DNA of 59,543 bases from Candidatus Brocadiaceae bacterium (lineage in GTDB: Bacteria; Planctomycetota; Brocadiia; SM23-32): NCBI GenBank assembly GCA_963805825.1, contig CAWDVO010000027.1:1-59543 (forward strand), given 5' to 3'. The notes under the pieces are model-generated. The model was given only the letters and a program-made list of their open reading frames with translations. It had not been told where the DNA came from and searched no databases. Each line of letters begins with the position of its first letter. Position 1 is the stretch's first letter. The translations under genes and the position numbers were made by a program. This document shows, one piece after another, positions 9,432 to 12,354 of the stretch.

Positions 9432-11621
9432 TCACTCGGGCTCCCAGAGGTGTACGTAGAGAGAGTCGCGCCAGCCGTGGCTCATGATGCCGAAGCGGCC
9501 TGGCTCCAGCTCGATGACCTTCGCGCCGTCGTGGTGCTCGAATCGGTCGTCCACCAGGTAGCGGCCCCACGCCGTGCCGGCCGGGTCGGCCTTCTTGTAG
9601 ACGAACAGGCGGCTGCGCGAGCGGTAGGGCTGCGCGGGGTCGTGCTCGCCGACGATGACCTCCGGCTCGCCGTCGCCGTCCAGGTCCGCCACGTCCAGCG
9701 AGTGCGGGCAGCGGATCGTGTCGATGACGTGGGGCTTCCAGCCGTCCGTGCGCGGGTCCTCCGGGCACTCGAACCAGGCCAGCCGCGAATGGACCGTCAC
9801 GCGCTCCCGCGTCTGGAGCACCTCCTCGCCGAGCACCACGTCCGGGCGGCCGTTCGCGTTGACGTCCGCCACGCGCACGCGGGCCACGGGGAAGCCCTCC
9901 GCAATACGGTGCGGCGTGAACGTGCCGTCGCCCATGTTCTCCAGCCACCACGGGCCGGCCACGAGGTCGATCAGGCCGTCGCCGCTGATGTCCCACGGCA
10001 CGATCTCCTCGCCGTACTCGATATCGGCCAGCATGCGTTTGCGCCAGCGGCCCTTCACGAGGTCCTTCGGCGCCTCGAACAGCTCCGGACGGTCGCCGTG
10101 CCCGGCGCTGTGGTATCCGATGAGCAGGGCGCGTCCGCCGCCGGGCAGCAGGGGGGAGACGGCGGCGCCGTGCGGCCAGTCGCCGGTGCCCGTGCCGATG
10201 TCGCGCTCCTCCCACACGCCCCGGCGCGGGTCCACGGGCTTGAGCCAGCAGAGCTTGCTGGTGAGGGCCTCGTAGGAGTTCTTCGCGCGCGGGCGGGCGC
10301 GGGTGGCGATCAGCTCCTCGCGGCCGTCGCCGTCCAGGTCGTAGGCCGCATGCACCTGGTGGACGTTCGGGATGACGTAGCGCTCCCACGTCGGGTTGCG
10401 GTACCACCAGGCACCGCAGACGATGTCCTGGCGGCCGTCGCCGTCCACGTCACACGCCAGGATGTCGGTCGCGGTGTAGGGCTTGTCGCGGTCGATGAAG
10501 CGATGGCGGAAGCGGAAGGGCGCGGGCGAGGTGCGGCGCTTGTAGACGTGGACCTTTGTGTGCGCCCACTCCTTGCCGGCGATCTCCCACTCGCCGTCGC
10601 CGTCCAGGTCGAAGGGGACGGCCTCGTGGGTGCCGGCGCCGCGGTAGTCGATCTTGCGCTCCCAGGTGCGGCCGGCGTCGGCGGTGGCGTACTCGATCAG
10701 TCGCGCGTCCAGGTTGTAGGGCTGTCCCCAGCCGCCCTCGGCCATCTCGGCCAGCCAGACGTGGGCCTTGCCGTCCGTGCGCCAGGTGTGGAGCGAGTGC
10801 GCGAAGATGAGGCCGCGCTCCAGCGGGTGCTCGACCCACCGGTGGTCCGGGTCTTCGGCGAGGCGGTTCTCGAACCAGGAGAGCCGGCCGTCGCGGTACT
10901 CGGACTCGACGGCGATGATGCCGGGCCGGCCGCTGCCGGCCACGTCGAGAGGCGCCGTGCGGCACATCTCGCGGAAGGCGGGGGCGAAGACGTGGCGCTC
11001 CCACGGGCCGGCGAGCGGGTCGCCTGCCGGCGCGTGGTACCAGGCATAGCCGCTGACGATCTCCAACTGGCCGTCGCCGTCGAGGTCCGCCACGCAGGTG
11101 CCCTCGGCGGCGTAGCCCTGCTGCACAACGTGCGGCGTCCACTGCGCGGTCACGTCCGCGCCGGGCTTGTAGATGAAGACGCCCGGCTCCGGGCAGTAGG
11201 CGGCCAGCGCGACGGCCTCGCGGACGCCGTCGCCGTCGATGTCCGCGAAGAGCAGGTCGTGGATGCTGCCGGCGCAGTTATCGGCCAGCACGTGCCGGCG
11301 CCACGGGCCGGAGAGCGCGCCCTCGGGCTTGAACCACTCGATGCCGCGTCGCCCGTTGCCGACCGAGGTGACGACCTCCGGCAGCCCGTCGCCGTCGACG
11401 TCCTCCACGACGAGCCCGACGTGGAAGACGCCCTCGGCGATCAGCCCCTTCTCGAACGTGGCGGGCCGGTACCAGAGCAGCGAGCCGTTCCCGCCGACGA
11501 CCATCTCCACCTTGCCGTCGCCGTCGATGTCCCCGACGGCCAGGCTGCCCAGGTCCGTGGCGGGCGGCGCGGCGTCGAGGATGAGGTAGTCCCAGAACTC
11601 CTGCGGCCAATCGCCGAGCAT
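9432..11621 (-). CDS. FG-GAP/VCBS-repeat beta-propeller protein (large, ~729 aa)
   Basis: Many DxDGDG FG-GAP-type repeats (GDIDGDGK, DVDGDGLPE, DIDGDGVRE, DLDGDGQLE, DLDGDGEWE, DVDGDGRQD, DLDGDGREE, DISGDGLID, DLDGDGEPE). Start chosen at MLGDWPQEF with a GAGGAGG RBS. The antisense 759-aa ORF is a shadow. Confidence 0.75.
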   Translation of the reverse strand: MLGDWPQEFWDYLILDAAPPATDLGSLAVGDIDGDGKVEMVVGGNGSLLWYRPATFEKGLIAEGVFHVGLVVEDVDGDGLPEVVTSVGNGRRGIEWFKPEGALSGPWRRHVLADNCAGSIHDLLFADIDGDGVREAVALAAYCPEPGVFIYKPGADVTAQWTPHVVQQGYAAEGTCVADLDGDGQLEIVSGYAWYHAPAGDPLAGPWERHVFAPAFREMCRTAPLDVAGSGRPGIIAVESEYRDGRLSWFENRLAEDPDHRWVEHPLERGLIFAHSLHTWRTDGKAHVWLAEMAEGGWGQPYNLDARLIEYATADAGRTWERKIDYRGAGTHEAVPFDLDGDGEWEIAGKEWAHTKVHVYKRRTSPAPFRFRHRFIDRDKPYTATDILACDVDGDGRQDIVCGAWWYRNPTWERYVIPNVHQVHAAYDLDGDGREELIATRARPRAKNSYEALTSKLCWLKPVDPRRGVWEERDIGTGTGDWPHGAAVSPLLPGGGRALLIGYHSAGHGDRPELFEAPKDLVKGRWRKRMLADIEYGEEIVPWDISGDGLIDLVAGPWWLENMGDGTFTPHRIAEGFPVARVRVADVNANGRPDVVLGEEVLQTRERVTVHSRLAWFECPEDPRTDGWKPHVIDTIRCPHSLDVADLDGDGEPEVIVGEHDPAQPYRSRSRLFVYKKADPAGTAWGRYLVDDRFEHHDGAKVIELEPGRFGIMSHGWRDSLYVHLWEPE

Positions 11622-11634
11622 GTCGGTCCTCCTC
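11538..11634. repeat. direct repeat copy 1 (~95 bp, 5' end of the FG-GAP gene with RBS)
   Basis: ~85% identical to 12266-12354. Both encode MLGxWPQEFxDYLILxAAxPATDLG. Confidence 0.7.
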
Positions 11635-12235
11635 AAGTGACCAGAGCGGTCTCTACATCGCCTGCGCGCCTGTAGTTGGCAACGATGACTCCCGTTGGCG
11701 AGACCTTGCTGTCGGTCAGTCTGAAAGCCGCCGGGATGGCACCCTCGGCAAACAGGCGTTTGCCCGGGCCGAGCGTAATGGGGTAGATCTTGAGCCACAA
11801 TTCGTCAACCAGGTCGTGACTCAGGAGCGTCTGTGCCAGGTCGGCGCTTCCGTAGACGTGCAGGTCCGGGCCGTCCTCAGCCTTGAGTTTCTTCACCTCT
11901 TCGGCGACGTCGCCGGCAAGGAGGACTGAGTTCTCCCAGTCGAGCTTGAGGGACGAATCGTGAGATGCAACGTACTTCCTCGCCTTGTTGACGCGGGGCC
12001 AAACAGCACCATGGTGCGGCCAGTAGGCTGCCCAGATATCGTACGTCTTCCGGCCGAGAAGCAGGTCGAACCGGACCGACATCTGTCCGCCGATGACGCT
12101 GCGCAGAACGTCGTCGTTGTAGGGGGCAACCCACCCACCGTACTCGAAGCCTCCCGAAGTATCCTCCTCGGGGCCTCCGGGCGCCTGTATCACGCCGTCC
12201 AGGGTCATCATTGATAGGACGATGAGTCTTCTCAC
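11633..12235 (-). CDS. dihydrofolate reductase family protein (RibD C-terminal domain / YwjB-like)
   Basis: GTG start (MRRLIVLSMMTLDGVIQAPGGPEED...) with a GGGGAGG RBS, 200 aa. The start overlaps the stop of the upstream stub ORF (ATGTGA). Confidence 0.7.
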   Translation of the reverse strand: MRRLIVLSMMTLDGVIQAPGGPEEDTSGGFEYGGWVAPYNDDVLRSVIGGQMSVRFDLLLGRKTYDIWAAYWPHHGAVWPRVNKARKYVASHDSSLKLDWENSVLLAGDVAEEVKKLKAEDGPDLHVYGSADLAQTLLSHDLVDELWLKIYPITLGPGKRLFAEGAIPAAFRLTDSKVSPTGVIVANYRRAGDVETALVT

Positions 12236-12336
12236 ATGTGCCTCCCCGAAGTGACCGTACCAAACCTGCCCAGGTCCGTGGCGGGCAGCGCGGCACCGAG
12301 TATGAGGTAGTCCCGGAACTCCTGCGGCCAACCGCC
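12232..12336 (-). pseudogene. duplicated N-terminal stub (34 aa) of the FG-GAP gene, possibly acting as a translationally coupled leader ORF for the DHFR-family gene
   Basis: Encodes MLGGWPQEFRDYLILGAALPATDLGRFGTVTSGRHM. It carries its own GGAGGA RBS and ends in ATGTGA, overlapping the GTG start of the downstream gene. Confidence 0.55.
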
Positions 12337-12354
12337 GAGCATGCCGGTCCTCCA
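12266..12354. repeat. direct repeat copy 2 (~90 bp)
   Basis: Paired with 11538-11634. Together they flank the 0.6-kb DHFR-family gene. Confidence 0.7.

Follow-up and report, generated by a model that had tools for sequence, protein, structure and literature searches.

Why does a complete gene of the RibD_C ('dihydrofolate reductase') family lie between two copies of the translation start of its neighbour? This arrangement is found on contig CAWDVO010000027.1 of a Candidatus Brocadiaceae bacterium (assembly GCA_963805825.1), of which positions 1 to 59,543 were analysed; this whole 59.5-kb stretch is called the window below. The neighbour is an FG-GAP/VCBS-repeat gene, and the extra copy of its start opens a short open reading frame (ORF), here called the stub, which runs into the RibD_C gene. 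The arrangement is most likely a genuine scar, of an ordinary kind, left when a gene was acquired horizontally through illegitimate recombination assisted by microhomology, and the stub, which resembles a leader ORF, is most likely a decaying by-product of it.

The direct repeat and the gene it encloses

All genes of the locus are on the minus strand, and repeats were sought in the window by repeat finding and with blastn. Comparison of the region with itself gives one direct repeat pair, 88 nt long and ungapped (Table 1). The two copies are identical at 81 of 88 positions (92%), with E = 1e-33 in a pairwise comparison and 1.3e-31 against the whole window, and their longest common exact run is 21 nt. 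The first-pass annotation of this DNA had described a duplication of about 90-95 bp with about 85% identity; the duplication is real, and its length and identity are corrected by these figures. No third copy is present in the window, nor are there other repeats of this kind in it, such as the similar boundaries of about 90 bp for which a search at other loci had been suggested.

On the minus strand each copy begins at the Shine-Dalgarno (SD) sequence GGAGGA and ends with codon 25 of the FG-GAP frame. Between them lie 633 nt, consisting of a 30-nt 5' flank and the 603-nt RibD_C ORF. The left junction of the insert is at 12265/12266, and at the right junction (11632/11633) the TGA of RibD_C abuts the GGAGGA of the downstream copy. 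The downstream copy forms the intact start of a 729-amino acid FG-GAP protein, as had been proposed. The upstream copy stands directly behind the stop codon of the upstream gene, here called Cterm370, which is the ancestral position of the FG-GAP start.

Table 1. Features of the locus in window coordinates.
Feature	Position	Strand	Description
FG-GAP/VCBS-repeat gene	9432..11621	-	729 amino acids; Pfam FG-GAP_3 4.7e-37, FG-GAP 3.7e-27
Downstream repeat copy	11545..11632	-	Functional start of the FG-GAP gene (SD, codons 1-25)
RibD_C / 'dihydrofolate reductase family' gene	11633-12235	-	200 amino acids, GTG start, intact
Stub ORF	12232..12342	-	36 codons and TGA; product MLGGWPQEFRDYLILGAALPATDLGRFGTVTSGRHM*
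RibD_C 5' flank	12236..12265	-	30 nt; own SD GGGGAGG 5 nt before GTG
Upstream repeat copy	12266..12353	-	Orphaned FG-GAP translation-initiation region: SD GGAGGA, ATG at 12342, 25 codons
Cterm370	12360..13496	-	Ancestral 5' neighbour of FG-GAP; own SD, ATG at 13496, signal peptide
Conserved 57-nt non-coding element	13517..13573	-	Just upstream of the Cterm370 SD

The enclosed gene had been assigned to the RibD-C/DHFR family as a gene of 0.6 kb, and the Pfam RibD_C family (PF01872) indeed matches residues 4-184 of its 200-residue product (5.4e-21, 75.7 bits against a cut-off of 24.1). The protein aligns over its full length with homologues of 199-202 amino acids, with 78 columns invariant over 15 aligned sequences, and it has the natural C-terminus of the family; the gene is full length. 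An NCBIfam match is weak and lies under its cut-off (18.8 against 184 bits), and a reductase function is suggested only by the family name. In the same frame an ORF of 240 amino acids (11633-12355, minus strand) starts at an ATG at 12355 that overlaps the SD of the stub. Gene callers may over-extend the RibD_C gene to this ATG, by 40 residues, and may also call the stub as a small gene, so annotation of such loci calls for caution; the homologues of 199-202 amino acids support the GTG at 12235 as the true start.

By its codon composition the RibD_C gene looks foreign and horizontally acquired. Its GC content at third codon positions is 0.756, compared with 0.962 for the FG-GAP gene and 0.959 for a sulfatase gene of the cluster, and its overall GC content is 0.61 against 0.72. 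The gene has homologues 70-81% identical over many phyla (full-length alignment). The nearest of them (77-81% amino acid identity) are found in unrelated, AT-rich surroundings and have unrelated flanks, and one adjoins an integrase and a family-A polymerase (PolA). The search for a donor or a shared flank returned neither, only one distant viral match. Comparison with the RibD_C gene of a related locus, L001, gives dN (non-synonymous divergence) 0.07, dS (synonymous divergence) 0.28 and dN/dS of about 0.25, values that indicate purifying selection. On at least 24 metagenome contigs (loci L039-L044, P0124 context) a 77%-identical homologue has a phage-type integrase on one side and a family-A DNA polymerase on the other, so this gene family can ride on mobile or phage-like elements.

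The stub consists of 25 relic FG-GAP codons and 11 codons read out of the foreign 5' flank. It had been described as 34 codons with its own GGAGGA; the SD stands, and the length is 36 codons and a TGA. Its stop codon (12234-12232) overlaps the GTG of RibD_C (12235-12233) in the string ATGTGA (12237-12232), as first reported, an overlap of 4 nt when start and stop codons are counted together (GTGA within ATGTGA). An alignment of six sequences shows that all 7 differences between the two copies are private to the upstream copy, since the five functional FG-GAP starts agree among themselves at all 7 sites. The downstream copy differs by 1 nt from the start in the related locus L031 (87/88) and by 2 nt from that in L001 (86/88). 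One of the 7 differences lies in the spacer between SD and ATG and one is synonymous (ATA vs ATC). The other five alter four codons, giving D4G, W10R, D16G (two substitutions) and P19L, all at residues conserved among FG-GAP homologues. Private changes at conserved residues argue that the upstream copy has been released from the constraint on FG-GAP, and most likely it no longer functions and is slowly decaying as a relic of the start of FG-GAP translation.

Related loci and the ancestral state

The identities given here for related loci are nucleotide identities of the FG-GAP 5' region to the window, except for L015, for which amino acid identity is given. Relatives that lack the insertion, which the first-pass annotation had proposed for comparison, do exist. 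Three loci, called type A, contain neither RibD_C nor the repeat. L031 (88.6%) has the Cterm370 stop codon, CACGAA, and then GGAGGACCGACATG and FG-GAP. In L002 (87.1%) Cterm370 leads directly, over the spacer GGCAGA, to the same SD and FG-GAP. L015 (69% over the best segment, amino acids 338-728) has a sulfatase, Cterm370 and FG-GAP in this order; its spacer between Cterm370 and FG-GAP is about 260 nt and its SD context differs.

At the upstream copy of the window the junction is the ancestral one, TGACACGA(T/A) followed by GGAGGACC, as in L031 and L002, and the left flank of the copy, TGACACGAT, matches TGACACGAA of L031. The upstream copy carries the type-A left flank (TGACACGAT before GGAGGACC) and therefore occupies the ancestral position. 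The insertion, first described as lying in the 5' end of the FG-GAP gene, is better placed at the boundary between Cterm370 and FG-GAP, and the upstream gene is not a plain SPFH gene.

Two further loci contain RibD_C. L001 (type C, 96.9%) has a sulfatase, a beta-helix gene, a spacer of about 150 nt, RibD_C and FG-GAP; it lacks Cterm370 and the stub, and its junction between RibD_C and FG-GAP is the same tight TGA-GGAGGA as in the window. The 57-nt element found upstream of Cterm370 in the window is 89% identical in the L001 spacer (L001 9242-9299), directly behind the beta-helix gene and with different flanks, so the L001 locus derives from one with the Cterm370 slot. In L046 (type D, 89.5%; JGI 3300056867, Ga0568854_0481716) the RibD_C stop codon is followed by a 44-nt flank, GACACGAA, GGAGGACC and FG-GAP. 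Because L046 keeps this piece of ancestral spacer downstream of RibD_C, the tight junction of the window and L001 is derived.

On FG-GAP the window groups with L001 and L046 in one clade (identities of 96.9%, 89.5% and 90.4%), and the type-A loci fall outside it (88.6% and 87.1%); the insertion of RibD_C is thus real relative to type A. The same arrangement without a repeat in related genomes had been expected to speak for an old, fixed order; L001 provides this in part, with RibD_C next to FG-GAP, no repeat and no upstream gene. The adjacency of RibD_C and FG-GAP is common to three lineages only about 90% identical and is therefore old. Divergence of the window from L001 is about 10% in RibD_C, 7% in the sulfatase and 3% in FG-GAP. 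The RibD_C value fits the background, so the gene is old and vertically inherited in these two lineages. A recent insertion, or a cassette-style one as first proposed, does not agree with an adjacency of this age, nor with the absence of inverted repeats, attC, integrase and transposase at the locus.

The FG-GAP tract of the window (9470-11670) is 97% identical to L001 10000-12200. The DNA on either side is more diverged, with 89-90% identity for RibD_C, 93% for the sulfatase and 74-96% for the downstream DNA, and the switch in identity is sharp, 37 nt before the RibD_C stop codon. The lower divergence of FG-GAP than of RibD_C, together with this switch, shows that the FG-GAP tract was later exchanged by homologous recombination and hence that these lineages recombine; the exchange is a recent one between two lineages of about 90% identity.

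Origin of the duplication

The repeat is very probably the relic scar of a recombination-mediated acquisition of RibD_C, and two paths lead to it, each of which needs three events. Tentatively, and with a little less than even confidence, we favour a path of recombination between haplotypes, in which RibD_C replaced Cterm370 and Cterm370 was later regained. A foreign RibD_C fragment with short flanks would first have replaced Cterm370 in the ancestor of the window, L001 and L046, giving an L001-like haplotype made up of the upstream element, a flank of about 90 nt, RibD_C and FG-GAP. The lineage of the window would then have regained Cterm370 from a relative that still held Cterm370 followed by FG-GAP. 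On the left this would have taken place by homologous crossover, and on the right by an illegitimate join at a 14-nt microhomology between codons 21-25 of the donor FG-GAP (ACGGACCTGGGCAG) and the resident flank upstream of RibD_C (ACGGACCCAGGCAG). The first 88 nt of the donor FG-GAP would thereby have been carried along as the stub ahead of RibD_C. The stub has since gained its 7 private substitutions, and its frame happens to end on the TGA in the GTG-AGA of RibD_C. Entry of foreign DNA by recombination that is homologous on one side and illegitimate on the other has been documented (PMC3240628).

The key comparison is with the L001 spacer, in which the 57-nt element is followed by 44 orphan nucleotides, ACGGACCCAGGCAG and a diverged RibD_C 5' flank. 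ACGGACCCAGGCAG matches the last 14 nt of the repeat (ACGGACCTGGGCAG) at 12 of 14 positions, exactly where the repeat of the window ends. As a free local alignment this match is not significant, 374 of 2000 shuffles scoring as well, and only its position is striking; it therefore does not decide between the two histories. By our own estimate, some 10 or more 12/14 matches are expected by chance between a GC-rich flank of about 90 nt and a GC-rich gene of 2.2 kb, so the favoured path needs no coincidence. The RibD_C flanks (30 nt in the window, 44 nt in L046 and 44 nt in L001) have no match in the window or in any fetched locus, apart from a weak homology of the 30-nt flank to the sequence upstream of RibD_C in L001. 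A tblastx comparison of the L001 spacer with the window gave compositional noise only. We slightly prefer the path through haplotype recombination because it explains the orphan 44 nt as native flank, the 88-nt length by the position of the microhomology, and the match at the junction.

Several points weigh against this preference. The L046 contig does not reach upstream of RibD_C, and the junction at 12265/12266 is supported by one assembly only. An in-place insertion that duplicated its target, with a later deletion in L001, is also compatible with these data, and the 12/14 match may then be all that is left of a stub and not a microhomology that existed beforehand. The Leu2 codon CTC, the sole synonymous site unique to the FG-GAP copy of the window, is shared by the stub, which mildly favours an in-place origin or gene conversion.

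An insertion in place is the other path, possible though distinctly less than even in our judgement. Here one illegitimate event in the common ancestor would have put RibD_C between Cterm370 and FG-GAP and duplicated a target of about 96 nt that began at the Cterm370 stop codon and ended at FG-GAP codon 25. This state would persist in the window. A later loss of 44 nt at the right junction would be common to the window and L001, after which L001 would have shed Cterm370 and the initial 74 nt of the stub. With an equal count of events, no re-acquisition of Cterm370 is needed. The ancestral GACACGAA kept by L046 before the SD downstream of RibD_C is what a target reaching the Cterm370 stop codon predicts, a stub remnant in L001 would be expected at the place of the 12/14 match, and the window-specific CTC codon is common to the stub and the resident copy. 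The mechanism is, however, unusual, since a 96-nt duplication is far longer than those of the transposase type, and 44 nt of orphan filler are required at the L001 deletion. About 12 neutral changes would also be expected in a stub older than the L046 split, compared with the 7 seen (P of about 0.1), a weak argument given that the expectation is a rough extrapolation from divergence data.

Selection on the stub itself is unlikely as the reason for its persistence. According to this explanation the SD, the ATG and the ATGTGA overlap are kept to drive or tune translation of RibD_C by coupling. The SD, ATG and frame are all intact, a 4-nt overlap of stop and start is the classic geometry of coupling, and the genes are co-directional and tightly packed on the minus strand without a terminator. 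The stub may be translated and may couple ribosomes onto RibD_C. By our own calculation, however, 7 random changes miss the 9 positions of SD and ATG with P of about 0.47, so that it is not statistically significant that SD, ATG and open frame have all been kept. The GTG-AGA of RibD_C contains the TGA in any case, and a frame stops there with a one-in-three chance. The substitutions in the stub are mostly non-synonymous, and the predicted structure at the start of RibD_C is no better than that of shuffled sequences (z = 0.67), so this start is not sequestered. A separate SD precedes RibD_C in the window and in L001 alike, and because the gene persists in L001 although no stub stands before it, the stub would be dispensable; judged from these sequences it is not required for RibD_C expression. 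The suggestion that the inserted gene had captured the expression signals of FG-GAP is not supported by these observations.

An assembly chimera, in which co-occurring Cterm370-FG-GAP and RibD_C-FG-GAP haplotypes were misjoined, is highly improbable: both haplotypes exist in nature and the junction of the stub with the RibD_C flank is known from this contig only (look-ups of the exact window RibD_C protein found no second assembly of it), but no run of identical bases common to the copies exceeds 21, the join of FG-GAP codon 25 to the RibD_C flank has no k-mer in common with any observed haplotype, and the 7 private substitutions, absent from live alleles, are unexpected if two live haplotypes were joined.

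Two further origins were considered and rejected. Recent import of RibD_C and FG-GAP together from an L001-like donor into a type-A genome does not agree with divergences of about 10% for RibD_C and 3% for FG-GAP. Tandem duplication of the whole FG-GAP gene with later replacement of the first copy was rejected on the RibD_C flanks, which match nothing in the window or the fetched loci.

The locus is a clean case of how, in an uncultured lineage of high GC content, a single foreign gene became fixed in an operon without the help of a transposon, integron or phage, and its pre-insertion state and two alternative post-insertion states are recoverable from metagenomes.

Surroundings of the locus and comparison with known systems

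The FG-GAP protein, with its multiple FG-GAP-type repeats, is a member of the FG-GAP/VCBS family, which is large and well conserved. The FG-GAP_3 match falls in four stretches, and the DxDGDG motif recurs in a DNA repeat family, D1. Among 1792 homologues, the best 120 are about 725-810 amino acids long, 53-68% identical and spread over several phyla, with Brocadiia, Anaerolineae and Kiritimatiellae among the phyla and classes represented. The closest named genomes by FG-GAP similarity are metagenome-assembled genomes of the class Brocadiia, at no more than 68%.

Cterm370 is part of a 666-amino acid ORF (12360-14360, minus strand) that joins an SPFH/Band-7 part (about residues 1-260) and Cterm370 in one frame. 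The SPFH gene lacks its own stop codon, and its frame continues across what was once intergenic sequence and enters Cterm370. Elsewhere each half has homologues that stand alone as proteins of about 370 amino acids. This read-through may have arisen by gene fusion or may itself be a further insertion scar at the locus. Beyond it, upstream, come two sulfatase genes. A site scan gave no terminator-like site on the minus strand and no promoter-like site of any kind, so the cluster reads like one operon. The 57-nt element includes a palindrome, GTGTGGGACAC, and its last 9 nt, CGGACCTGG, are also the last 9 nt of the 88-nt repeat; it may act as promoter or operator for Cterm370.

The slot between the sulfatase and a Zn-ribbon gene (compared with window 9432-15763) varies among relatives. 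L035 has the sulfatase followed by FG-GAP, L033 has Cterm370 followed by the Zn-ribbon gene without FG-GAP, L015 has the sulfatase, Cterm370 and FG-GAP, and L001 has the beta-helix gene in place of SPFH. No mobile-element genes were seen in the slot of L033, L035, L015 or L001. As a long shot, the slot between the sulfatase and FG-GAP genes could be a recombination hotspot that, in different lineages, swaps single naked genes at or near gene boundaries without mobile-element machinery; the genes swapped could be RibD_C, the SPFH-domain gene, the beta-helix gene, Cterm370 and even FG-GAP. If so, duplicated initiation regions might recur as a by-product and supply new genes with ready-made leader ORFs.

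Other repeats are also found in the window. A 53-nt repeat has two copies (862-914 and 23098-23150, plus strand), 83% identical and each internally palindromic (CGAGGGATCTCAATG...CATTGAGATTCCTCG), and looks like a dispersed element similar to repetitive extragenic palindromes or terminators. A 170-nt direct repeat (17565-17734 and 18004-18173, 71% identical, 439 nt apart) is conserved in L001 (4140-4310 and 4579-4749) and probably represents two tandem paralogous small genes.

Searches for known mobile and regulatory elements gave negative results. The ends of the insert carry no inverted repeats, and a Pfam scan of the large neighbouring ORFs (about 1-27.8 kb of the window) gave no integrase, transposase or recombinase. 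The RibD_C stop codon abuts the FG-GAP SD and leaves no 3' sequence for an attC site, and the 44-nt 3' flank in L046 has no attC-like palindrome by eye. There is no Rfam match in the window, and the junction of RibD_C and FG-GAP, like the stub, folds no better than shuffled sequences (z = 0.29). A structured RNA, riboswitch or attenuator at either site was rejected on these grounds.

Target-site duplications of transposable elements are 2-14 bp long. Like transposon and insertion-sequence duplications and integron cassettes, the locus has a single inserted gene between direct repeats. The repeat is 88 nt in contrast to 2-14 nt, the insert is a single RibD_C ORF and there are no terminal inverted repeats or transposase; a transposable element was rejected for these reasons. 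An integron gene cassette was rejected for lack of attC and an integron integrase, and there is one such repeat pair in 59.5 kb.

Campbell-type or site-specific integration also leaves direct repeats that hold a gene end on both sides of the insert, with the gene kept intact by the downstream copy. Here there is no integrase or other recombinase, the insert of 633 nt holds a single ORF, identity between the repeats is 92% and not complete, and relatives carry the same insert without a repeat; attL/attR of an integrative element were rejected accordingly.

Translationally coupled genes with ATGA or GTGA overlaps are similar in that the stub stop codon overlaps the RibD_C start by 4 nt. Unlike in such pairs, the upstream partner is only a piece of a gene, its product is not conserved, and L001 does without it. 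The separate SD of RibD_C and the stub-less L001 argue against a dependence of RibD_C expression on translation of the stub, as far as sequence comparison can tell.

Among the closest known processes is homology-facilitated illegitimate recombination, described in PMC3240628 for natural transformation and Escherichia coli conjugation, in which one homologous anchor is combined with one microhomology join. The present case differs from that description in being deduced from comparative footprints alone, in an uncultured lineage with no known competence. By the favoured path, foreign or divergent DNA would in both be fixed beside a homologous anchor without mobile-element machinery. The joint at this locus coincides with a short GC-rich near-match (12/14), and the insert is a naked gene with arbitrary, non-palindromic boundaries. 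The locus adds an instance to a kind of event already known; it reveals no new mechanism or system.

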